From Escherichia phage A51.2, in the sequence record ON286973: 64,000 nt of DNA; one strand, written 5' to 3'. Positions 3,814 to 32,183 of the stretch are shown piece after piece; the stretch's first letter is position 1; each line of letters starts with the position of its first letter. The translations under genes and the position numbers were made by a program. Below the pieces are notes generated by a model. That model was not told the DNA's origin. It saw only the letters and a program-made list of their open reading frames with translations, and ran no database searches.

Positions 3814-4234
3814 TGCAAAAGCTTTTGGTGAGACAGCGGTACAAAGGGGGCAGGCGATGGGACTGGCACTACCTTTCGTATTAAAAGAGCACTTTACAGA
3901 TTTTCAACTTATCAAGGGTGATAAGGGAATGCTTATCCTGGAGCATAAGTTGAGTAAGAAACGCTATAAAGTTGTTTTTAATTCTAAAGCTCCAACAAAA
4001 CTGGGATTCAGAACTTACAATCTTAACCCATCCTACACTAAGGGTGTTGGAAGGGTAGAACAACAGCATTTCAGTGCCAGAGCTTCTTTAGCCCCTTTGA
4101 TGCTAAATTTCTCAGGGGTGGCTTTAGGATACCTTGATAAGAAAAGAGTTCTTCATGTCCGTTTCACAGACTTTGTAACGCTTCTAGCCAACAACGAGGT
4201 TGATGAAAAGGGACGTGTAAAAACAAACTTCTAA
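3776..4234 (+). CDS. hypothetical protein
   Basis: 152-aa ORF, ATG after GGAGAC. Confidence 0.4.
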   Translation: MIKSIDLTKELTDAKAFGETAVQRGQAMGLALPFVLKEHFTDFQLIKGDKGMLILEHKLSKKRYKVVFNSKAPTKLGFRTYNLNPSYTKGVGRVEQQHFSARASLAPLMLNFSGVALGYLDKKRVLHVRFTDFVTLLANNEVDEKGRVKTNF

Positions 4235-4261
4235 TAACGCATAGTATGATTGGAGAACGCA

Positions 4262-4453
4262 ATGACACTAAAGTTAACAATTCCAGACAGCTTTTCAGAA
4301 GACTTTATCCCAGAAATGATGGATAAGATGCGATCATTGCTTGATCAGATCGAGGAAGCTGTTTGGGAAGACGATGCTGTAGTGGCTAACGAGCTGGTAG
4401 ATAAGTGTAAAAGTATTATTGATGCAGTTGAAGAATACCACGGAGGTTTTTGA
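4262..4453 (+). CDS. hypothetical small acidic protein
   Basis: ATG 4262; stop overlaps next start (TGATG). Confidence 0.35.
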   Translation: MTLKLTIPDSFSEDFIPEMMDKMRSLLDQIEEAVWEDDAVVANELVDKCKSIIDAVEEYHGGF

Positions 4454-5067
4454 TGGATATTATTGTTCTTAACGCCCCACCCAGCAGTGGTAAGGATCAC
4501 ATTGCAGATCTCTTGTTGGAAGCTATTCCTAACTCACACCACCGTGAGGTTAAGGAGATGCTCTTCAGTGTGGCAATTAAGGCAGCTGGTGTAACTCCTC
4601 AACTCTGGAATGCACTTTATGACCGCCACTACAAAGAAGAGCCTTGCCCTTTCTTAATGATAGACGGTAAGCATGTTTCTCCGCGAGAATGGATGATCCA
4701 TTGTAGTGAAAATCTGATTAAACCTATCTTTGGTGAAGATGCTTTCGGTAAAGCCGCAGTCGCATCTTTGAAGAAAGATTTCCCTAAAGGTAAAGGGGTT
4801 GTTGTTTACTCCGATGGTGGATTCAAAGAGGAGCTGGCATGCCTTAGCGAGTACGCGTACAGCACAGGTGGAGATCTGTTGTTGTTCCGTATTCACCGTG
4901 TCGGATATGACTGGGGAAATGATTCCAGAACCTATCTAAGTCTGGAAAAGAACGGAATAAAAGGAATTGAGTTCGATGTTGTAAACCCTGAAGGTGCACC
5001 TTGGGAATGTGCATCGGAGATTGTGTGCAAGTATATTGATGCTAAAGAGGCCCAAGAAGAATGTTAA
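4453..5067 (+). CDS. P-loop nucleotide kinase, dNMP kinase-like (T4 gp1-like)
   Basis: N-terminal Walker A LNAPPSSGKDHIADL resembles T4 deoxynucleoside monophosphate kinase. Confidence 0.5.
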   Translation: MDIIVLNAPPSSGKDHIADLLLEAIPNSHHREVKEMLFSVAIKAAGVTPQLWNALYDRHYKEEPCPFLMIDGKHVSPREWMIHCSENLIKPIFGEDAFGKAAVASLKKDFPKGKGVVVYSDGGFKEELACLSEYAYSTGGDLLLFRIHRVGYDWGNDSRTYLSLEKNGIKGIEFDVVNPEGAPWECASEIVCKYIDAKEAQEEC

Positions 5068-5654
5068 TCGGTATTGATGTAGATTTGACACTGGTAGATT
5101 CAGGAACAGCATGGTGGGAGTGGTTGGAGCGTTTATATGGTCCAGCCAGTAAGACAGTCACTAAACCCTCTAATGGGTTAATGTATTACGATCTGTCAAA
5201 GTATTGGCCTGATCGCCCCAAAGAAAACATCATAGGGCCTTTTGATTTCTGGAGTGACCCGTTCCTCTACGACTTTCTTAAGCCTGAAGATGGGGCTATT
5301 GAGGTTATGAAAGATTTGGTGGCTCGTGGTCACAAGCTTGCATTTATCTCGGTATGCAAGAAAGGTCACCTTGCATCTAAATCAAGGTTCTTAAAGCGTT
5401 GGACTAGTGATTTTATGGATCTGGACGATCACACCCAGGGTCACGGCTTCTACGCCACGCATTTCAAGGGAAATGTGGCTGTAGATGTTATAATTGACGA
5501 CAGGCATGAATACCTGAACCAATTCGCTTCACGCCCTGAAGTTATTAAAATCCTAAAAGATACGCCTTATGAGCAATTTGAGGAGTTAAAGGTCAGTGTT
5601 GACTATACCGCTAATAGCTGGTATAAAATAGGAAAGTTTTTAGAAGGTATTTGA
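5061..5654 (+). CDS. HAD-superfamily 5'(3')-deoxyribonucleotidase-like phosphatase
   Basis: HAD motif I IGIDVDLTLVDS (DxD) and late DD motif VIIDDRHE. Confidence 0.6.
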   Translation: MLIGIDVDLTLVDSGTAWWEWLERLYGPASKTVTKPSNGLMYYDLSKYWPDRPKENIIGPFDFWSDPFLYDFLKPEDGAIEVMKDLVARGHKLAFISVCKKGHLASKSRFLKRWTSDFMDLDDHTQGHGFYATHFKGNVAVDVIIDDRHEYLNQFASRPEVIKILKDTPYEQFEELKVSVDYTANSWYKIGKFLEGI

Positions 5655-5655
5655 A

Positions 5656-5856
5656 ATGGGCAGATGTTCTAAAGGTGGCGATCCTGTAGTCAGATACGGT
5701 GACTGGCTAGAGGTGTATGATCTGGGAGGTAAGCTGGTGTATGCCTCCAGGATCACCCAAGACATGTGCTCCGATATGTTCAACAGATACCTTGCATTTA
5801 AGGCCAACATAAACCCAGACGAAATTTCCAAAATTAAAACAAGGAGAGCTAAATAA
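5656..5856 (+). CDS. hypothetical protein
   Basis: 66-aa ORF between nucleotidase and ThyX-like gene. Confidence 0.35.
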   Translation: MGRCSKGGDPVVRYGDWLEVYDLGGKLVYASRITQDMCSDMFNRYLAFKANINPDEISKIKTRRAK

Positions 5857-6839
5857 TGCTAAAACTGTGCACTGCAAAGATCATTGCTGACAGCATTTCC
5901 GAGAAAGGTAAGCGCATCACCACTTTTGAGCTAGAGTATCCTCGAATTATTCACTCAGAGCTTATGACGCACCGAGTGTTCAGCCGAAACGCCATGTCTT
6001 CCCGTGCAGTGCCTGTCGGAAAGATGCTGCAACAGATTGTGGAGAATCCGGCAATGCCAGTTCGCTTCGGTGTAAATAAGCGAGGAATGGAAGATGGTGG
6101 GGAACACGATCAAAAGATCCGTGTAGAGTACACTGATATGGAGCTAACTCCGGAAGAGTTTTGGAAAGAAGCTGCAAAAAACGCCGCTTGGCATGCAGAG
6201 AAGTTTGCCCTTGCTGGTTACCATAAGCAAGTATGTAACCGCTTAGTGGAGCCTTTTCAGCGCATGAAAACAGTTGTAACAAGCACCGAGTGGAATAATT
6301 TTTTCCACCTCCGTTGCTGGCACGATGCGGATCCTACGATTCAGATGTTAGCTAATTGTATGTGGGAGGCTCTTGTGAATAGCACTCCTGAAATCCTTAA
6401 ACCGGGTCAATGGCACACTCCATATGTAGAGCACGTTTATTTGGACGGGGAGTTTAACTACGCTGTACGTGACACAGAAGGAAAGCTCTGCATTCTCGAT
6501 ACTAAAGAAGCTCTGTCTATCAGTGCTAGTTGCTGTGCACAAGTATCTTATCGAAATATTGACAGCACGTTTGAAAAGGCAGACAGTGTGGCTAAAAAAT
6601 TGATTGGTGGGGATCGTATTCATGCAAGCCCTTACGAGCACCAGGCAACACCTATGGATCACGATAACGCAATGGAACGTTTAAACTACTACCTGTCTTC
6701 ATGTGAAATCACACAAGACATCAGTACTTGGCAGGAAGGTGTAACCCATCAAGACCGTGATGGTAAATTCTGGTCTGCCAACTTTTGTGGGTGGGTTCAG
6801 CACAGACAACTGCTTAATAACCACTTCGTGAAAGGTTAA
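5856..6839 (+). CDS. thyX: ThyX-like (flavin-dependent thymidylate synthase family) protein, divergent signature
   Basis: RBS AAGGAGAG; THRVFSRNAMSSRA aligns to ThyX signature RHRxxSxNExSxRY with 3 consensus positions changed; 327 aa is longer than typical. Confidence 0.6.
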   Translation: MLKLCTAKIIADSISEKGKRITTFELEYPRIIHSELMTHRVFSRNAMSSRAVPVGKMLQQIVENPAMPVRFGVNKRGMEDGGEHDQKIRVEYTDMELTPEEFWKEAAKNAAWHAEKFALAGYHKQVCNRLVEPFQRMKTVVTSTEWNNFFHLRCWHDADPTIQMLANCMWEALVNSTPEILKPGQWHTPYVEHVYLDGEFNYAVRDTEGKLCILDTKEALSISASCCAQVSYRNIDSTFEKADSVAKKLIGGDRIHASPYEHQATPMDHDNAMERLNYYLSSCEITQDISTWQEGVTHQDRDGKFWSANFCGWVQHRQLLNNHFVKG

Positions 6840-6868
6840 TCCTATCACAGCGATAGGTAACTTTTGTG

Positions 6869-6897
6869 TTGACTAATAGTATTAGATAATCTATAAT
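6869..6897 (+). promoter_or_regulatory. sigma70-like promoter (TTGACT-17-TATAAT)
   Basis: Consensus hexamers with 17-bp spacer upstream of 6926 gene. Confidence 0.55.
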
Positions 6898-6925
6898 AAT
6901 GGCTCACTTTGTTGGTGAGCCAGAA

Positions 6926-7399
6926 ATGGAGACAGATATGAGTAATGTTATGATTCCTAAAAAGACATTTATTTCAGTTACTTTGGATTTCCTATCTACC
7001 GTTCCCGGGTTTAACGTTCGCACACGAAACGGTCTCCGAGCTGCACTCTTTGCCGTAGGGTTTGATTTAAAAAGTATTGATGTTCTTCGTGGAAAAAACG
7101 TTCGATGCAAAAATAAGCCAACACATTATCGAAAGGCAGATGTATTTGCTGGTGTCATGCGTGCAGACTTTAGATACCCGCAAATGTATAACGGTGTAGA
7201 TATTTTAGATGTGGATAAAGCACCTGGTGAGGCAATGCTTGTTCAAGATCTTCCGTATGATATTCCTGTAGAGGATCGTGTTAATGTAAGAAAGTATACA
7301 AAACAATCTGAAAAGGCTGAAGATATTCATATTGTTGATGAACCTTTCAATTTTGAAGATCTGCATCGCCTGGAAAAATTATTCGGTATTGAAAGCTAA
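6926..7399 (+). CDS. hypothetical protein
   Basis: ORF 6899..7399 trimmed to first ATG downstream of the promoter -10. Confidence 0.4.
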   Translation: METDMSNVMIPKKTFISVTLDFLSTVPGFNVRTRNGLRAALFAVGFDLKSIDVLRGKNVRCKNKPTHYRKADVFAGVMRADFRYPQMYNGVDILDVDKAPGEAMLVQDLPYDIPVEDRVNVRKYTKQSEKAEDIHIVDEPFNFEDLHRLEKLFGIES

Positions 7400-7409
7400 G
7401 GTGGTGAAG

Positions 7410-7640
7410 ATGAGTCATAACTCCAAGTGGAAGGATCTTGGTTTTGCAAGTCGGTCAGAGTATGTTGGTTGGCTTTGGTTCAACGGCCTGACAAACGATA
7501 TTAAAATGTATGATGATGTTTATTATGACGAGTATACAGGCAAAATTATAAATATCTCTGTAGAAGAGGATACCTTTATCCAGCAAGATACTGATACCTG
7601 CCTTGATAAATACGTTGATGAAGTGGAGGAAGCAAATTGA
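7410..7640 (+). CDS. hypothetical protein
   Basis: ATG 7410 after AAGGTGG; ORF-track 7332 start overlaps upstream gene. Confidence 0.4.
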   Translation: MSHNSKWKDLGFASRSEYVGWLWFNGLTNDIKMYDDVYYDEYTGKIINISVEEDTFIQQDTDTCLDKYVDEVEEAN

Positions 7641-9952
7641 TCACCAAGGTAATTAAAAGCAACGGATGTGAAGTGGCATTCGATCCAGAACGTTTAAATA
7701 AGGCAGCTATTTTCGGTGACGACGGTAACGGCAATTGGTCACATATTGCACTGGATGCATACAAACGACTGTATGATGGATGTACAACCAAAGAAGTTAA
7801 CCAAGCTATCATAGACTCCTGTGTTAGCCGTAAAGACGAAGCACATTCCCGTATGGCTGGTCGTGTTCTTATTGGTCAGATTTATAAAGAGGCTTTTGGA
7901 GGGTTTACAAAGATCCCTTCCTTACCATCATTTTACAACGACATGGTTGAGAAAGGGTATTGGGAGGATATGGGATATAGCTTTACCGAGCTAAACACTT
8001 TAGACGCTGTTATTGACCACAGTAAAGATCTCGGTTATGGCTATGCAGTCCTTAAACAGTTTCGCGACAAATACGGGATCAAGGATACTCTTAAAGACAC
8101 CTTGTTTGAATCTCCCCAGATGATGTTTATGGGGATAGCAATGGCTGTCATGAAGAATATGCCGAAAGAACGTCGTATCAACGATGTTGTAAAATTATAC
8201 ACTTATCTGTCCGACTTAAAGATCAATGCCCCGACACCGTACTTAAACGGGCTGCGCACAGGTAAGACAGGGTATGCATCTTGTTGTGTAATAAAAGCTG
8301 ACGATACAGCAAAATCTATTGGTGTGGCACGTGAAGTTGCGTACACAATGACGGTTAACCAAGCAGGTATCGGCTACTATTTATCATCAAGATCTGCAGG
8401 TGATGGTGTTCGCGGTAACACTATTAAACACATGGGTAAGATTCCATATTATCGAGGTATTGATGCTGGTGTTAAGGAGAACAGACAACAATCACGTGGC
8501 GGTTCTGCAACAGTATCATTCCTTGCACTGGACCCGCAGATTGATGAGCTAATCCGTTTGAGAAACCCTATGACTGTTGCTTCAAAAAGAATCAACACCA
8601 TGGACTACTCCATCGGTATTAATAGGTCGTTTATCAACCGTGTGGCTAAGAATTTAGATTGGATGCTTGTTTCTTATAAGCACGCTCCTCAACTGCATGA
8701 GGGTATCTTCACCATGTCTATGGAGGAGTTCGATGCAGAGGTTGAGCGTATTGCTAAAGATGACAGTATTCCTAAGACATGGATCCGGGCTAGAGATCTT
8801 GCTGTTGAGCTGATCACGCAGCGTACTGAGGTGGGAAGGCTGTACGTATACTGGACAGATGAGATGAATAGACATACACCTTTTAAAGATGTGATCTATT
8901 CAAGCAACCTGTGTGCAGAAATAGCCCTCCCGACAAAAGGCTATTCAGATATGCGTAATATCTTCAAGTACGATGTTGATGATGGTGAGGTTGCATTGTG
9001 CTTCCTGTCATCTCTTGTAGCTGGAAGGGTTACCCCAGAGGAGTATGAGGATGTTGCATACTACACGGTACTTATGATTGACAATGTTATGGAAATCATG
9101 ACATATCCGTATGAAAACATGGAGAGTACTGTTAAAAAACGCAGATCCATCGGGGTTGGCCTTACCAATGTTGCACATTTTATTGCCAGCCACAAGGTTA
9201 CTTACGGATCTCCTGAAAGTAAACAGCTTGTTCACGATCTTGCAGAACTTCACAGCTACAGCTTGCATAAGGCAAGTTTACGGTTGGCAAAAGAGCGTGG
9301 TGTCTGCGAGTGGATGTATAAAACAAAATATCCAGAAGGTTGGTTACCAATCGACACTTATAACAAAGAGGTCGATAGTGTGGTGAAAGATCCTTCTCTT
9401 AAACAGGATTGGGAAGGGTTACGTAAAGAAATCATTGAAAATGGTGGGCTACGTAATAGCGTTCTTGAAGCATATATGCCTAATGAAAGCTCTTCGCTGG
9501 CAACAAACACCACTAACGGGGTTTATCCTGTCCGTGAGCACATTATCTTTAAAAAGTCGCCACAAGGGCAGGTGCTGTTTATCGTTCCTGAATACGATGA
9601 GTTGAAAGAGTATTACACTTCGGCTTGGGACGTTGATACTAACGACATGATCGATATGTATGCTGTGATTCAAAAATTCACAGGTCAGGCAATCAGCGCG
9701 GATTTATACATAGACTACACCAAGTTGAAAGATGGTAAAATTTCAATGAAGGAGCAGCTAGGGTACCTTATCCGTGCCACTAAATTCGGGATGAAGACAT
9801 GGTATTATTTAAACTCTAGGGTTGGTGCTGGTGACTCCTTGGCAGAGGAACTTCATGCCAAGAAACAGGCTGAAGATGAAACCAGAAAGAACTATCCTTT
9901 GATTGCAGATAGTTCAGTTGAAGATCCGTATTGCGAAAGCTGTGCACTATAA
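7637..9952 (+). CDS. nrdA: ribonucleotide reductase class Ia large subunit
   Basis: N-terminal ATP-cone (VIKSNG..E.F), catalytic NLCAEIALP motif, 771 aa; TTG start after GGAGGA. Confidence 0.9.
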   Translation: MITKVIKSNGCEVAFDPERLNKAAIFGDDGNGNWSHIALDAYKRLYDGCTTKEVNQAIIDSCVSRKDEAHSRMAGRVLIGQIYKEAFGGFTKIPSLPSFYNDMVEKGYWEDMGYSFTELNTLDAVIDHSKDLGYGYAVLKQFRDKYGIKDTLKDTLFESPQMMFMGIAMAVMKNMPKERRINDVVKLYTYLSDLKINAPTPYLNGLRTGKTGYASCCVIKADDTAKSIGVAREVAYTMTVNQAGIGYYLSSRSAGDGVRGNTIKHMGKIPYYRGIDAGVKENRQQSRGGSATVSFLALDPQIDELIRLRNPMTVASKRINTMDYSIGINRSFINRVAKNLDWMLVSYKHAPQLHEGIFTMSMEEFDAEVERIAKDDSIPKTWIRARDLAVELITQRTEVGRLYVYWTDEMNRHTPFKDVIYSSNLCAEIALPTKGYSDMRNIFKYDVDDGEVALCFLSSLVAGRVTPEEYEDVAYYTVLMIDNVMEIMTYPYENMESTVKKRRSIGVGLTNVAHFIASHKVTYGSPESKQLVHDLAELHSYSLHKASLRLAKERGVCEWMYKTKYPEGWLPIDTYNKEVDSVVKDPSLKQDWEGLRKEIIENGGLRNSVLEAYMPNESSSLATNTTNGVYPVREHIIFKKSPQGQVLFIVPEYDELKEYYTSAWDVDTNDMIDMYAVIQKFTGQAISADLYIDYTKLKDGKISMKEQLGYLIRATKFGMKTWYYLNSRVGAGDSLAEELHAKKQAEDETRKNYPLIADSSVEDPYCESCAL

Positions 9953-9959
9953 TTTTAAA

Positions 9960-9978
9960 GGGGCTTCGGCCCCATTTT
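9960..9978 (+). terminator. hairpin GGGGC-TTCG-GCCCC plus T tract between nrdA and nrdB (terminator/attenuator)
   Basis: Perfect stem with TTCG loop followed by ATTTT, 8 nt after nrdA stop. Confidence 0.5.
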
Positions 9979-9990
9979 AGAGGTAGAATA

Positions 9991-11079
9991 ATGGCTGTAT
10001 TTAATGCTGAGAACACCGCTCATAAAACTGGTGACTATCCGCTGTTTCTGGGACAGCAAATGGGTATGTACGACTCTATCAACAAAAAATATCCACAACT
10101 GTTTGAACTATACAAAAAACAAAAAGAGCAAGATTGGGCAGAGGATGAAGTGGATTTGTCGCAATCTATTTCAGATTTTGTAACATGCTCAAAGTCAACT
10201 TATGACGTGATGGTGCAGACCTTGATGTGGCAATGGGAGGCTGATAGCGTTGCGGCAAGATCGATCATCTGCCTCTTTTCACCATTCATCACTAATAGTG
10301 AGCTTTTCACTCTATTGATGAAACAGTCAGAGATTGAAGTTCTTCACGCACTAACTTACTCAGAGATTGTTAGACAATGCCTCCCCAATGCCCGTGAGAT
10401 TATAGAAGAGATTCAGGAAAACCAAAACGTTCTGAGCAGATCCGGCGTTATTGTCAAATACATGCAAGAGCTTGAGGTTATTGGTGCAAAATACCGCCTG
10501 GATCCTTCTAGTGTTGAAGAAGATATTGTGCGGAAATGCATTCTTAGAGCGCTTTTTGCGCTTTTAGCTCTGGAAAGTATTGAGTTTATTGCAAGTTTTG
10601 CATGCACTTTCGCAGTAGCTGAACAGGGTATCTTTGTTCAGGTGGCGCAGCTTGTTCAAAAAATCATGCTTGACGAAATGCTACATTCGAAAGGTGATTT
10701 TGCCATCATTGATATCTTGCTTAATGATCCCGCATGGGAGAAAAGCTTCCTTGAGATAAAGGGGGAGTTAAAAGAGATTCTTGATGAAGTACGAACCAAA
10801 GAGTACGGTTGGAGTGACTATATTTTCAGCGAAGGAAGAGCGATTATAGGTCTTAACTCACCGTTGCTTAAAGAGTGGGTTGACTATAACTGCTCACCGA
10901 TTTATGATTACTACGACATCGACAAAGACTTTGTGCCGCCAACAAAGGACCCGCTACCGTTTATGCAGGTGTGGATGAAACCTTCATTACAACAGACGGC
11001 GAACCAAGAAATGTCGAACACTGACTACCGCGTCAACACAACTGTTAACGACGCTGAAGAAGAAATTTGGGAGTTTTAA
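9991..11079 (+). CDS. nrdB: ribonucleotide reductase class Ia small subunit
   Basis: Iron-ligand region EVLHALTYSEIV and FACTFA; ATG 9991 downstream of the hairpin (ORF-track start 9931 runs through it). Confidence 0.85.
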   Translation: MAVFNAENTAHKTGDYPLFLGQQMGMYDSINKKYPQLFELYKKQKEQDWAEDEVDLSQSISDFVTCSKSTYDVMVQTLMWQWEADSVAARSIICLFSPFITNSELFTLLMKQSEIEVLHALTYSEIVRQCLPNAREIIEEIQENQNVLSRSGVIVKYMQELEVIGAKYRLDPSSVEEDIVRKCILRALFALLALESIEFIASFACTFAVAEQGIFVQVAQLVQKIMLDEMLHSKGDFAIIDILLNDPAWEKSFLEIKGELKEILDEVRTKEYGWSDYIFSEGRAIIGLNSPLLKEWVDYNCSPIYDYYDIDKDFVPPTKDPLPFMQVWMKPSLQQTANQEMSNTDYRVNTTVNDAEEEIWEF

Positions 11080-28855: not shown

Positions 28856-29161
28856 ATGGCTAAATCTAAAGTTGAACTGTTCACCTCTCTTCCTTCTGAC
28901 ACTGCAGAACGTGATCGCCTTCGCAAAACAATTGAAGAACTGGTGGAACTCCAGCTTCAGATTAAAGATTTGAAAGATGCCATCAAGGATATCATTCTTG
29001 TTGAGAAGCAGGATCATCTGTATTCTCCTAAATTCATCAAATCTCTGGTGGCTACCGAGTTCGATATTCGATATGAGGCTGAAAAACGTCGAGCTAAAAT
29101 CGAAGAAGAGGTTGAGCACATGTCTGAGGCAGACATTCTGTTCAAACGCTCTGTAGAATAA
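28856..29161 (+). CDS. hypothetical coiled-coil-like protein
   Basis: RBS AAGGAGA; charged heptad-like sequence. Confidence 0.45.
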   Translation: MAKSKVELFTSLPSDTAERDRLRKTIEELVELQLQIKDLKDAIKDIILVEKQDHLYSPKFIKSLVATEFDIRYEAEKRRAKIEEEVEHMSEADILFKRSVE

Positions 29162-29166
29162 TGACA

Positions 29167-29193
29167 AAGAGGGGGGCTTAGGCCCCTCTTTTT
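29167..29193 (+). terminator. intrinsic terminator (AAGAGGGG...CCCCTCTT plus T tract)
   Basis: 8-bp stem followed by TTT. Confidence 0.7.
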
Positions 29194-29216
29194 ACTATCC
29201 ATGAAGGAGACTTGAG

Positions 29217-29549
29217 ATGGGTATACCGATCACTGTAAAAGAATTGAATGAACGTGATGCAGGTGGTCTATGGCCTGCACGAAAAATACACTGCATCCGT
29301 ATGAAAGAGAACCTTCAGCATCTTGAGCAACAGAAACGGATTGAGGTTGGTGATATTTTCGAAGTATTTTATTCTGATCGCCGTAACTGGGAAACCATTC
29401 AACCTTCCGGTTTTGTTCTTGCTAAGCTTGACACTGGAGAAGTGATTGTTCCTGGGTTGGATATTGTCTTCGAAATTATACAGGAGTGGGATCCGGACAA
29501 GATTAGATACGAAGAGCTATTCGGTGAAGGTATTATCAAACCTGTGTGA
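29217..29549 (+). CDS. hypothetical protein
   Basis: RBS AAGGAGA 6 nt upstream. Confidence 0.45.
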   Translation: MGIPITVKELNERDAGGLWPARKIHCIRMKENLQHLEQQKRIEVGDIFEVFYSDRRNWETIQPSGFVLAKLDTGEVIVPGLDIVFEIIQEWDPDKIRYEELFGEGIIKPV

Positions 29550-29557
29550 GGTGGATT

Positions 29558-29857
29558 ATGTCTACAAAGGCGGCTAAATACTCCTATATGCCATCAACCT
29601 CTGCAGAGGTAGACTTTAGTTTCGATGTGTTTCCACTGTTTGAGGTGGTTCTGGCATACCCAACAATACTATCTACTCCTGAATCACTTGTGCCTGTTAA
29701 GTTGCAGAACGCTATGCATTCCATGCACTACAACAACAAATGTAGGCACAGATGGTGTCAGGACGAGGAAAAAGATTTGGATAGTTTGAGAGATTTTGAC
29801 AGTCACCTTTTGACACCTTTCAGCTACTCCAACCTTGATAAGCCCTCGTGGGTATAG
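29558..29857 (+). CDS. hypothetical protein
   Basis: ATG 29558 after GTGAGGTGG. Confidence 0.4.
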   Translation: MSTKAAKYSYMPSTSAEVDFSFDVFPLFEVVLAYPTILSTPESLVPVKLQNAMHSMHYNNKCRHRWCQDEEKDLDSLRDFDSHLLTPFSYSNLDKPSWV

Positions 29858-30070
29858 CAAAATATCAAATTTAAGACACCTAGAACGCTCTGTGGCGTCC
29901 TTTTCTTTATCTGGTGCACGATTGCATACCTTGGGTAGTTAATTTCATTACAGAGCGTTTAAGAGCTCCCTACAAACAACCCCATATTTCGAGCGTAGCG
30001 AGAACGCACGTCCGTTTTGACCCAAATCACCATACGCTCGGATTTTAACCAAACCCTCGCGGCGTTTCTG

Positions 30071-30099
30071 TTGACACATTACCGATCCAGTGATAGTAT
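30071..30099 (+). promoter_or_regulatory. sigma70-like promoter (TTGACA-17-TAGTAT)
   Basis: Consensus hexamers; overlaps 8/9 DnaA-box-like TATCCACAC. Confidence 0.55.
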
Positions 30100-30131
30100 C
30101 CACACATCGTTTGGAGAATATGGGATACACA

Positions 30132-30221
30132 ATGAAAACATTGTCAGAGGTTTTGGTGGTGATCCTGATGATCATTACGTCCATAGTGGCTGTTGCCGGA
30201 ATACTCACGGGTGGAACATGA
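30132..30221 (+). CDS. small hydrophobic peptide (29 aa)
   Basis: MKTLSEVLVVILMIITSIVAVAGILTGGT downstream of promoter; below ORF cutoff. Confidence 0.3.
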   Translation: MKTLSEVLVVILMIITSIVAVAGILTGGT

Positions 30222-30430
30222 TAAACACACATGCATCTGAAGAGACATCCAAAGGAGTGACTATATGTCCCTTGACTGAGCCAGTGCAAGAGGAAAACTT
30301 CGATTCTGAAGATTCTTCATCTTCGCTCCAGGTAGATCCTGAGGCTGATGACCTGACGTGGGAAGACATCGTAGATATCTGGTTCTCTATTATGCCTGAG
30401 CACGAAGAGTTCAGGGGTGGTAGACTATGA
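30218..30430 (+). CDS. hypothetical acidic protein
   Basis: ATG overlapping upstream stop (ATGA); part of ORF-track 30017..30430. Confidence 0.3.
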   Translation: MINTHASEETSKGVTICPLTEPVQEENFDSEDSSSSLQVDPEADDLTWEDIVDIWFSIMPEHEEFRGGRL

Positions 30431-30551
30431 AGCACCGAGCCCACACAGGTTCCTCATGCTGAAGCATGGCCTGAAGAGGCAAACGTGCATAATTCCTGTG
30501 CATCGGAACGTATAAAACCCTGTTCACACTCTCATTTCCAGAGGAGATTTC

Positions 30552-30767
30552 ATGAAGATAGAAATATTTGGTGGAGCTGACAACACTCGTGGCCTGATTT
30601 ACCTTGAATTCGATGAATCATACCTGCCAGAGGTGTTAAATATAGACTCTGTTGCTGATGCTTTGGGAGTAAGTCCTAAAGATCTCTACTCTGGTGCTGA
30701 GATTGATGGTTGGGAGGAGACCATGAACATTGATTTCAGTGAAGTAGAGGATGAACCGCTGGACTGA
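30552..30767 (+). CDS. small acidic protein (MKIEIFG..., C-terminus EVEDEPLD)
   Basis: RBS AGAGGAGA; last plus-strand gene before the non-coding region. Confidence 0.45.
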   Translation: MKIEIFGGADNTRGLIYLEFDESYLPEVLNIDSVADALGVSPKDLYSGAEIDGWEETMNIDFSEVEDEPLD

Positions 30768-32183
30768 CGCACAATTAGCTGCCCGGCCAAAGTGCTGGAA
30801 GCACCTATAACACATCTTTCAACTAAATTTCCCACCACCACAATCACTTACCTTCCACACATGACTGTTTGCTTGTTTAGTGAGCAGTCATGCCTTGACA
30901 TTCTTGCCTATCCTGATAAAATTAAGTTCTTCTCTTTTCTTTTACCGAGTAATTCGGGTTTTCTGTTCTCTTCGGTTTGAAGGGGTATAGAGATACACCT
31001 GAGTGAACAGGGTGAACAACCGAACCATTAGCTATGGCATTAGCATGGCGAAGCGGACGGGTGACGAAAGAGGGGCCGGAGGACACCAGTCACTGCCATA
31101 TGATATATGGGTGATAACCTGAAGAGTCTGAATAAGTGTTTAAGTACCAGTCAGAGGAAAAGGTGAATGGTAGCCGAAGGGGGGAGGGGGGTTTCTTGTA
31201 TCTTTAATTTGTATATTATGTATACACTTGTAAACCAATCTAATCTGAATCTGTTTACCACACAAAGCGGATAGAGACAAATATTGCCTATTAAACTTGA
31301 ATTATTTATAGAAAATACCACAACACCCCTTAAGTCTTTGATTTTACACACAAATCCTACAGATATTCAACCTCCATATTTAACATACTTGTAACATATT
31401 CCATACTCTACCTGCCTGATCAATTTCCCCAACTACATTCTCATATTTCCCCTGTCTGTACTACCCTGCCCCACCGGGAGTCCCGTCATATCTGGCTTTC
31501 CAGCAAATATCACACCCACAAATATCATGCCTGAAGAGGGTTTCATCCCATAATACCTGCCTTGCCTGAAGAGCGCTTCATACACCACGTAAATTTTTTA
31601 ATTGACCTCCCCTGCCCCGCCGGAGAGGTTGGCTTTTCCCACACAGACCTGGAGAGTCAGCCAGAAATATCTGAATAGGCCCAGTTCTACCACGATTTTG
31701 ACCTGACCTACAGGAGCGCTGCCAGGCGGACGAAATGGGAATACTTCTCATTCTTATAACAATTCTCAAATATCGAGGCAGTGAGGCAAATTAATAGGCC
31801 AGGCCGTTCACACAGTGGCACAACATTTGCAACCTATCTTGTGGGGTGAATGAGAATACCTATCATTGTGAGAACCATTATCATTACGGGCAATTTAACA
31901 TAATACCCATTATGCGCACCACTGGCGATCCATACAGGGATTGATAACACGAGTTACAGTTTACGCATATAACAATCATATTTCTTACTATTTGTGTGGG
32001 ATATAGTTAGCAGCCGATAGATTAGATATTGACCTGTGGACTTCCAACCGTCTAGACGTCTAAGCGCCCACACAACAAGGCTTATACATACATTACTGAA
32101 TGTAAACAGGGCCGCAAAAATGCTACCATACCAGTTTGTAAATTTTTCATGCAGCACTTGACAAAGAGGAGGAAAACTTGTCT

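Follow-up and report, generated by a model that had tools for sequence, protein, structure and literature searches.

Does a phage protein that departs from the ThyX signature at several positions still make thymidylate? This question is raised by a gene of Escherichia phage A51.2 (sequence record ON286973), of which we analysed a stretch of 64,000 nucleotides, here called the window; features are given by their window coordinates and all lie on the plus (+) strand. The gene (5856..6839) was recognized from its open reading frame (ORF) and from profile matches. It encodes a ThyX-like flavin-dependent thymidylate synthase of 327 amino acids plus stop and is the ortholog of rV5 gp106, a thymidylate synthase by its annotation in the genome paper on rV5 from 2013 (PMC3606486). 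The initial annotation, based on the letters of the window, had left two options, a divergent thymidylate synthase or an enzyme installing a different C5 modification on a pyrimidine nucleotide. We find that only the first is supported. Most probably the gene encodes a working flavin-dependent thymidylate synthase, which makes deoxythymidine monophosphate (dTMP) for phage DNA and belongs to a phage sub-lineage of ThyX with a rearranged chain.

The gene product is a distant member of the ThyX fold

The protein matches the Pfam family Thy1 (PF02511) with 37.4 bits against a gathering cut-off (GA) of 24.8 (E=3e-9), the match spanning residues 23-178 and profile positions 60-190 of 191. PHROG_85 'thymidylate synthase' is matched end to end (1.6e-112). 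A search of PDB sequences with the 327-residue protein as single sequence returned nothing. An AlphaFold2 model built with 42 homologues reached a predicted local distance difference test score (pLDDT) of 84.8 and a predicted template modelling score (pTM) of 0.84. When this model was compared with the PDB by Foldseek the top 50 matches were all ThyX, with target TM-scores of only 0.36-0.53, and the structural matches in BFVD with E<=0.001 that bear a name are thymidylate synthases. The product is a ThyX-fold protein and a distant member of that group. The Thy1 profile alignment and the fold prediction, both proposed as checks in the initial annotation, thus came out on the side of ThyX.

Among the weaker structural matches in BFVD is A0A127AWA5 (Foldseek E=0.069), a 'thymidylate synthetase' of Bacillus phage SP-15. 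This phage carries hypermodified thymine.

A ThyX segment is found behind the catalytic core

Residues were mapped by alignment (hhalign, mafft) on ThyX of Thermotoga maritima (Tm), using a sequence that is an exact match to PDB 1kq4_A. Conservation was scored in 142 representatives with 39-59% identity to the query. Based on HMMER searches of PDB sequences with the family profile, Tm ThyX is matched in three weak sub-threshold pieces that stand in non-collinear order: family positions 228-269 (SASCCAQVSYR...HASPFEH) correspond to Tm 22-61 (SAVRAARVSF...HETPFEH), positions 21-50 to Tm 61-90 and positions 133-177 to Tm 155-199. The same non-collinear pattern, with low probabilities, was obtained by hhalign of the family profile with the single Tm ThyX sequence. 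In the phage protein the displaced piece comprises residues 216-262 ('SASCCAQVSYR...HASPYEH', 6501..6641) and is assigned by HMMER, hhalign and a splicing test to the α1-α2 helices and His53 loop of Tm ThyX. S30, H53, T55, E58 and H59 of Tm ThyX map to S231, H256, S258, E261 and H262, all five conserved in at least 90% of the representatives. H53 is also named in titles of PDB entries, along with E144, R174, S88 and Y91, as a residue mutated in studies of Tm ThyX.

The AlphaFold2 model shows the same arrangement. In canonical ThyX two helices and the His53 loop lie between β1 and β2, whereas in the model β1 (residues 6-15) meets β2 (20-29) via a four-residue turn, and the helices (216-230 and 239-250) and the HASPYEH loop come after the core. 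For the splicing test residues 196-262 were placed before residue 20 in silico and the construct was rescored against Pfam Thy1 and TIGR02170, the NCBIfam thyX equivalog model. The Thy1 score rose from 37.3 to 54.3 bits with one continuous match over profile positions 15-190, and the TIGR02170 score from 39.6 to 57.3 bits over positions 19-207, which is still below the cut-off of 87.9. Four controls, in which the segment was reversed, shuffled (two versions) or exchanged for residues 263-327, gave 36.3-37.1 bits and a coverage of 59/60-190, that is, no gain. The same splice in the ICP1, K8 and ECBP1 proteins, which are 42-52% identical to the query, added 15.5, 18.0 and 16.0 bits, with coverage from positions 13-16. 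Homology of residues 216-262 to the α1-α2-His53 segment of ThyX is therefore well supported at the level of sequence, and the relocated segment would occupy the canonical place in three dimensions.

The segment is followed by a C-terminal extension (residues 263-327, 6642..6836) that has no counterpart in canonical ThyX and contains the conserved residues N309, Q315 and R317; it gave no Pfam match, alone or spliced onto the core. Together with a β-meander (residues 186-215) the extension accounts for about 100 extra residues compared to canonical ThyX, in agreement with the initial remark that a protein of 327 residues is longer than a typical ThyX. Both the extra length and the weak profile match are explained mainly by the relocation of a ThyX segment to the C-terminal half.

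The variant signature and the active-site residues

The variant ThyX signature comprises residues 38-51 (THRVFSRNAMSSRA, 5967..6008) with the pattern T38-H-R-x-x-S-x-N-A-x-S-S-R-A51, compared to RHRxxSxNExSxRY in canonical ThyX. The initial annotation had read this motif correctly, with H, R, S, N, S and R kept and three consensus positions replaced. Relative to the signature RHRX7S (Myllykallio 2002, as quoted in PMC2826268) the protein has T38-H-R-X7-S48, and this one deviation, Thr for the first Arg, is within the tolerance of at most two deviations used by Stern et al. The family consensus is T-H-R-x-F-S-R/K-N-A/S-x-S-S-R-A. Among the 142 representatives T38 is found in 136, H39 in 141, S43 in 131, N45 in 132, S48 in 140, R50 in 141 and A51 in 141, while R40 is present in 118 and Ala or Ser at position 46 in 119. 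When 240 sequences with an uninterrupted motif are considered, the first residue is Thr in 238 and the last is Ala in all 240. The 'non-canonical' motif is thus the signature of a family.

To judge what these replacements affect, the known roles of the Tm residues have to be considered. R78, R80, S88 and R90 of Tm ThyX hydrogen-bond deoxyuridine monophosphate (dUMP) (PMC3498832). In the related enzyme PolB the equivalents of E86 and R78 contact the ribose 3'-OH, that of R74 the phosphate and that of R174 the O2/O4 positions, and the Y91 equivalent stacks on the uracil (PMC5003785). R174 activates dUMP, whereas Y91, the proposed general acid, and S88 are proposed to help displace the hydroxyl of the carbinolamine (PMC8316439). 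S88 and R90 are described as catalytic (PMC8316439, PMC3498832, PMC5003785).

By alignment the phage protein retains H79, R80, S83, N85, S88, R90, R147, N169 and R174 of Tm ThyX as H39, R40, S43, N45, S48, R50, R129, N148 and R153. It replaces R74 by S34, Q75 by E35, R78 by T38, E86 by A46, G89 by S49, Y91 by A51, N163 by T142 and R165 by T144. The set of residues that bind or activate dUMP is therefore present as R40, S48, R50, R129 and R153; R40 falls in the 75-90% conservation band and the other four are at least 90% conserved. R129 corresponds to Tm R147, whose role is presumably in binding the phosphate. The positions of Tyr91, Arg78 and Glu86 are occupied by A51 (141/142), T38 and Ala or Ser at residue 46. 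The stretch N148-F-F-H-L152-R153...A158-D-P160 (6297..6335) aligns in hhalign and mafft with Tm N169...L173-R174, which includes the dUMP-activating Arg, and with the AQxEI helix; N148, L152 and R153 are each at least 90% conserved. In all, about 45 positions reach at least 90% conservation, every remaining catalytic residue among them, and the equivalents of Tm H53, E58, H79, R80, S83, N85, S88, R90, R147 and R174 are conserved family-wide. The loop of residues 54-100 cannot be aligned with canonical ThyX and has a conserved motif of its own, P-A-x-P...G-x-N-x-x-G-M.

Judged from the alignments, the machinery for base recognition and nucleophile activation is intact, and what differs is the construction of the sugar/phosphate cradle and of the proposed general acid. 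As the equivalents of Y91, R78, E86 and R74 are replaced, the chemistry must be organised somewhat differently.

Family distribution and inteins

An exhaustive search of 1.84 billion cluster representatives yielded 5,031 clusters at E<=1e-3 and 1,987 at E<=1e-30, and by tblastn the protein is present in 1,035 phage records. Carriers include Vequintavirus, Phapecoctavirus, ICP1, Pakpunavirus, Gamaleyavirus, phiCbK-like, Cellulophaga and Flavobacterium phages. Identity to the query is 100% for E. coli O157 typing phage 14, 42-55% for the ICP1, K8, ECBP1 and Phapecoctavirus proteins and about 25-37% for the most distant phage matches listed.

The set contains 17 relatives of 425-683 residues, 15 of which match the query as two high-scoring segment pairs around a long insert. 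Ten of the 17 were scanned against Pfam, and in eight of these the scan revealed an intein splicing domain together with HNH, or a LAGLIDADG endonuclease. Relatives of 520-680 residues were considered as tandem duplications or informative fusions, and this was ruled out as they are intein-containing versions (HNH or LAGLIDADG). Intein junctions are found at six sites, H33|S34, R40|V41, F42|S43, S48|S49, ~155|156 (P0236 and P0253) and H256|A257 (five relatives), with the classical boundaries of Cys at the start and HN or GN followed by Cys/Ser at the end. In enzymes of replication and nucleotide metabolism, inteins are typically found within conserved functional motifs. Each of the sites here lies within or adjacent to a predicted active-site motif, including the position right after the relocated His53 equivalent, and the inteins may thus point independently to the active site.

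With at least six separate insertion points, a protein of about 320 residues has an unusually high density of independent sites. The clade members linked to inteins are P0126, P0132, P0138, P0147, P0154, P0155, P0161, P0179, P0201, P0213, P0215, P0216, P0217, P0236, P0245 and P0253; the nrdA gene of ICP1 is intein-bearing as well.

Genomic setting and probable dTMP supply

The window comes from the genome of an rV5-like myovirus (Vequintavirus). Over the 6 kb that surround the ThyX gene (window 4000-10000) it shows 99.9% identity to Escherichia phages HdK5, pangalan and CarlMeissner/Bas48, and in the 99.9%-identical rV5-like Vequintavirus genomes the matching gene is labelled thymidylate synthase. 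At megablast level at least 80% of the 6-kb region is covered in 116 phage records, each at least 90% identical.

The ThyX gene is the last of a close-packed run, with overlapping or abutting coding regions, that starts with a gene for a P-loop protein resembling deoxynucleoside monophosphate (dNMP) kinase (4450..5067; phrog_139 'deoxynucleoside monophosphate kinase', E=9.3e-45; no Pfam match). Downstream of the ThyX gene are genes for NrdA, NrdB, glutaredoxin, NrdD and NrdG. A related context is seen in distant phages: ribonucleotide reductase genes lie one small ORF downstream in K8, nrdA about 3 kb downstream in ICP1 and a dCTP deaminase gene 1.5 kb upstream in ECBP1.

We also looked for another source of dTMP. 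The annotation of a 99.9%-identical relative (137.6-kb record) lists no ThyA, second ThyX, dihydrofolate reductase, dCMP deaminase or dUTPase in its first 132 kb. Using tblastn with E. coli ThyA (an approximate query) nothing better than E=2.4 was found in the window or the relative's genome, and Tm ThyX revealed no second ThyX in the window or in positions 1-132 kb of the relative. By these searches the ORF is the sole thymidylate synthase found in the genome. The literature describes Vequintavirinae as 'exceptionally susceptible' to restriction-modification systems, lacking effective protection (PMC8594841), and XbaI cuts rV5 DNA (PMC3606486). As a supporting point for dTMP synthesis, the phage DNA thus behaves as unmodified. 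In general, simple base changes can leave DNA cleavable. Taken together, the dNMP kinase, the NrdAB and NrdDG genes nearby, the missing ThyA and the published restriction sensitivity indicate ordinary dTMP synthesis.

Between the kinase-like gene and the ThyX gene lie two further ORFs. The 3' end of the former overlaps the start of an ORF (5061..5654) for a borderline NT5C-like 5'(3')-deoxyribonucleotidase of the HAD family (Pfam PF06941 NT5C, 26.3 bits against a cut-off of 24.8), which matches phrog_420 (unknown function) and is annotated as 5'(3')-deoxyribonucleotidase in JLBYU08. A dNMP phosphatase in one gene run between a dNMP kinase and a thymidylate synthase, that is, beside enzymes that make and phosphorylate dNMPs, is counter-intuitive. 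It is followed by a 66-residue ORF of unknown function (5656..5856; phrog_4903, unknown function, E=5.6e-35), whose stop overlaps the ThyX start codon as TAATG. A ribosome-binding site, AAGGAG (5841..5846), can be read 9 nt upstream of the ThyX ATG.

Directly after the ThyX stop the sequence contains a terminator-like hairpin (6841-6857) with a T-rich tail (6841..6867), and the HdK5 and EdH4 records annotate a 'terminator' feature somewhere under the 6-kb match. Before the next ORF a promoter-like site, TTGACT-17-TATAAT (6869..6897), agrees with the consensus at 11 of 12 positions. In total, the region has as many promoter-like sites as expected from shuffling. By its consensus match the site at 6869-6897 may mark the end of the ThyX transcription unit.

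The following 166-residue ORF (6899-7399, +) is named 'putative thymidylate synthase' in JLBYU08; here it matches only phrog_5557 (unknown function) and no Pfam family. The same thymidylate synthase label is given to a 114-residue ORF downstream of ThyX in phage K8 (5956-6300 of locus L006; phrog_3506). A conserved small partner beside the ThyX gene was considered and rejected, as the neighbours in rV5, K8, ICP1 and ECBP1 have no detectable homology. The label on these downstream ORFs looks like annotation spill-over from the adjacent ThyX gene.

Several observations concern the wider genome. Window 4000-10000 is matched at megablast level by nineteen records that bear the name 'Campylobacter phage', of which 17 give Campylobacter jejuni as host; this suggests mis-assigned hosts, contamination or a remarkably broad distribution. 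Between endolysin and 5'-exonuclease CarlMeissner carries a homing-endonuclease gene and a C5-cytosine methyltransferase gene (5192-6495 of locus L001), and in the same interval JLBYU08 has an HNH endonuclease only (2031-2495 of locus L002), representing a small island that varies between genomes of otherwise 99% identity. The GC skew of the window flips sign at about 29000-31000, from about +0.12 to +0.22 before to about -0.03 to -0.17 after, with a cumulative maximum near 30 kb, consistent with two gene blocks, divergent or convergent, that differ in their dominant coding strand.

Discussion

Part of the picture presented here is already known, namely the gene and its thymidylate synthase label. 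In targeted full-text searches of the literature we did not find a description of the non-collinear ThyX segments or of the uniform absence of Arg78, Glu86 and Tyr91 equivalents in the clade; a search for permuted or rearranged ThyX gave nothing relevant.

The enzyme we propose would catalyse the reaction dUMP + CH2-H4folate (methylenetetrahydrofolate) + NADPH -> dTMP + H4folate, and would supply dTMP from host-derived dUMP alongside the adjacent dNMP kinase and the ribonucleotide reductases. In its chain β1 would lead directly into β2 and the (T)HR helix; the helical hairpin and His loop would come after the catalytic core (~216-262) and be followed by the 65-residue extension. In canonical ThyX this hairpin and loop carry His53 and other residues of the flavin/folate site. 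Binding of flavin adenine dinucleotide (FAD) and formation of a tetramer are expected by analogy with ThyX. The roles of the absent R74, R78, E86 and Y91 may be taken over by candidates such as R30, E35, R/K44, S49, the GxNQxGMQ loop and N309/Q315/R317.

Several points weigh against a working dTMP synthase. Four canonical nucleotide contacts are exchanged throughout the family (R74 to Ser/Ala, R78 to Thr, E86 to Ala/Ser, Y91 to Ala), and in Tm ThyX the Y91A replacement slows consumption of the flavin carbinolamine more than 100-fold (PMC8316439). The unspliced protein scores 40.0 bits with TIGR02170, below the cut-off of 87.9. Family-wide, Thr also replaces N163 and R165 of Tm ThyX, which we take to be FAD ligands. 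The relocated segment is the least confident part of the model, with pLDDT 52-62 for residues 230-260. PDB sequence searches with the single sequence and the family profile found no clade member with a solved structure, and a full-text literature search found no biochemical or genetic test of any clade member.

These points bear on the other explanations to be considered. The protein might be a ThyX-derived enzyme with altered chemistry or substrate, which releases 5-hydroxymethyl-dUMP by hydrating rather than reducing the exocyclic-methylene intermediate, methylates uridine monophosphate (UMP) as PolB does, or acts on another pyrimidine nucleotide, in a phage with a non-canonical pyrimidine. 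The exchanged positions are indeed mechanistically important: E86 and R78 contact the ribose 3'-OH, and Y91 equals PolB Y99, which stacks on the uracil and takes part in substrate choice (PMC5003785); Y91 is moreover the proposed general acid (PMC8316439). The TIGR02170 score and the NT5C-like deoxyribonucleotidase two genes upstream point the same way. Some phages that replace T use dTMP-specific nucleotidases, and sensitivity to restriction-modification is compatible with small modifications such as deoxyuridine (dU) or 5-hydroxymethyluracil (5hmU). Nevertheless, the base is most likely uracil, as neither the uracil-recognising arginines R153 (Tm R174) and R50 (Tm R90) nor S48 vary in the family. 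Members are present in over 1,000 sequenced phages of many groups, for which we found no report of modified thymidine, and with no other thymidylate synthase to make dTMP these phages would be left without a source of extra dTMP. There are no hypermodification genes nearby, the known phage dUMP hydroxymethylases are all ThyA-type (PMC8989533), and our literature search found no ThyX-type hydroxymethylase. We therefore regard altered chemistry as improbable. The different C5 modification of the initial annotation found no positive support, with a motif common to about 5,000 clusters, a gene block for deoxynucleoside triphosphate (dNTP) supply, a sole thymidylate synthase and restriction sensitivity. 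The divergent thymidylate synthase it had offered alongside is borne out by its fold and profile matches, by the conservation of residues that bind uracil and phosphate, and by the genomic context. For the clade as a whole, a function other than plain dTMP synthesis, with a different end point (e.g. 5-hydroxymethyl-dUMP via hydration of the exocyclic methylene), nucleotide, reductant or carbon donor, is very improbable in our view; if true, many common lytic phages (rV5, ICP1, Pakpunavirus) would have an unrecognised pyrimidine pathway.

Least probable of all, and hardly to be expected, is a catalytically crippled ThyX relic with another role in nucleotide binding or regulation, as NADPH oxidase or as scaffold of a dNTP complex. 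Loss of R78, E86 and Y91, the more than 100-fold effect of Y91A alone in Tm ThyX and the weak match to curated ThyX profiles would fit a relic, but the highly conserved positions (about 45) include every remaining catalytic residue and the six intein sites coincide with these motifs. Moreover, the gene is kept in K8 and ICP1, which are unrelated phage lineages, beside nrd genes in the former and no further than about 3 kb from nrdA in the latter, and the phage lacks any other way to obtain extra dTMP. A further alternative concerns architecture rather than function: the C-terminal half might be an unrelated fused domain whose resemblance to ThyX in residues 216-262 is coincidental. When taken alone the C-terminal fragment gives no Pfam or NCBIfam ThyX match, its HMMER scores are insignificant and it is modelled by AlphaFold2 with low confidence (pLDDT 63.6, pTM 0.37). 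Against coincidence, splicing gained 15.5-18 bits in four members, with continuous coverage from position 13-16 instead of 60, and the controls gained nothing. Moreover, the S223-H262 spacing is 39 residues compared to 37 for S22-H59 in Tm ThyX, and ECBP1 has SAARCARASY where Tm ThyX has SAVRAARVSF. H256, S258, E261 and H262 are at least 90% conserved, with an intein at H256 in five members. The N-terminal part lacks the segment entirely, so a functional ThyX site needs it from elsewhere. A chance resemblance is thus very doubtful, and a rearranged, working thymidylate synthase remains the reading we favour.

Compared with canonical ThyX/Thy1 enzymes (T. maritima TM0449, Mycobacterium tuberculosis Rv2754c, PBCV-1 A674R; PF02511), the phage protein has Thr for the first Arg of RHR, Ala for E86 and Y91, Ser/Ala for R74 and Thr/Thr for N163/R165. 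Its α1-α2-His loop is encoded after the core instead of between β1 and β2, it has about 100 extra residues, and it scores below the TIGR02170 cut-off. PolB, a UMP/dUMP C5-methylase of polyoxin biosynthesis (PDB 4p5a), has the canonical chain order and keeps R82, R86, E94 and Y99, corresponding to Tm R74, R78, E86 and Y91. Its specificity is provided by tyrosines of Loop 1 and Loop 2 (PMC5003785), features that the phage protein lacks; Ala51 takes the place of Tyr99, and the PolB gene lies in an antibiotic cluster, whereas the phage gene lies in a dNTP-supply cluster. The ThyA-type dUMP hydroxymethylases of SPO1, ViI and M6, which lead to 5hmU-derived hypermodified thymidine, act on C5 of dUMP at the nucleotide-pool stage (PMC8989533) and are the functional model for a C5-modifying alternative. 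Their fold is unrelated (ThyA, not ThyX); the tblastn search revealed no ThyA-like sequence in the phage, and downstream hypermodification genes are absent. The ThyX of PMC9348578 was rejected as a precedent, being a canonical 225-residue protein of an unrelated phage. The closest counterparts are rV5 gp106 and the PHROG_85 proteins of ICP1, Pakpunavirus, Gamaleyavirus, Phapecoctavirus, phiCbK-like and other phages. These represent the same protein family, from which the window's copy is not distinct, and were annotated as 'thymidylate synthase' by similarity only.

ThyX has been studied as a drug target and serves as a model of flavin-mediated methylene transfer. Specific jobs are assigned to Tyr91, Arg78 and the His53 loop in current mechanisms, and a very large natural clade without Tyr91 and Arg78 and with a rewired His53 segment offers a test of which of these features are essential. 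For annotation, it is relevant that thousands of phage 'thymidylate synthase' labels rest on a half-length profile match and that curated equivalog models miss these genes. A ThyX-type enzyme frees a phage from the need for dihydrofolate reductase, as its product is H4folate and not H2folate, and this independence bears on phage-antifolate interactions. The finding is of moderate interest to ThyX enzymology and to annotation, and of little to the biology of the rV5-like phage itself, in which the role of the gene is most likely ordinary.

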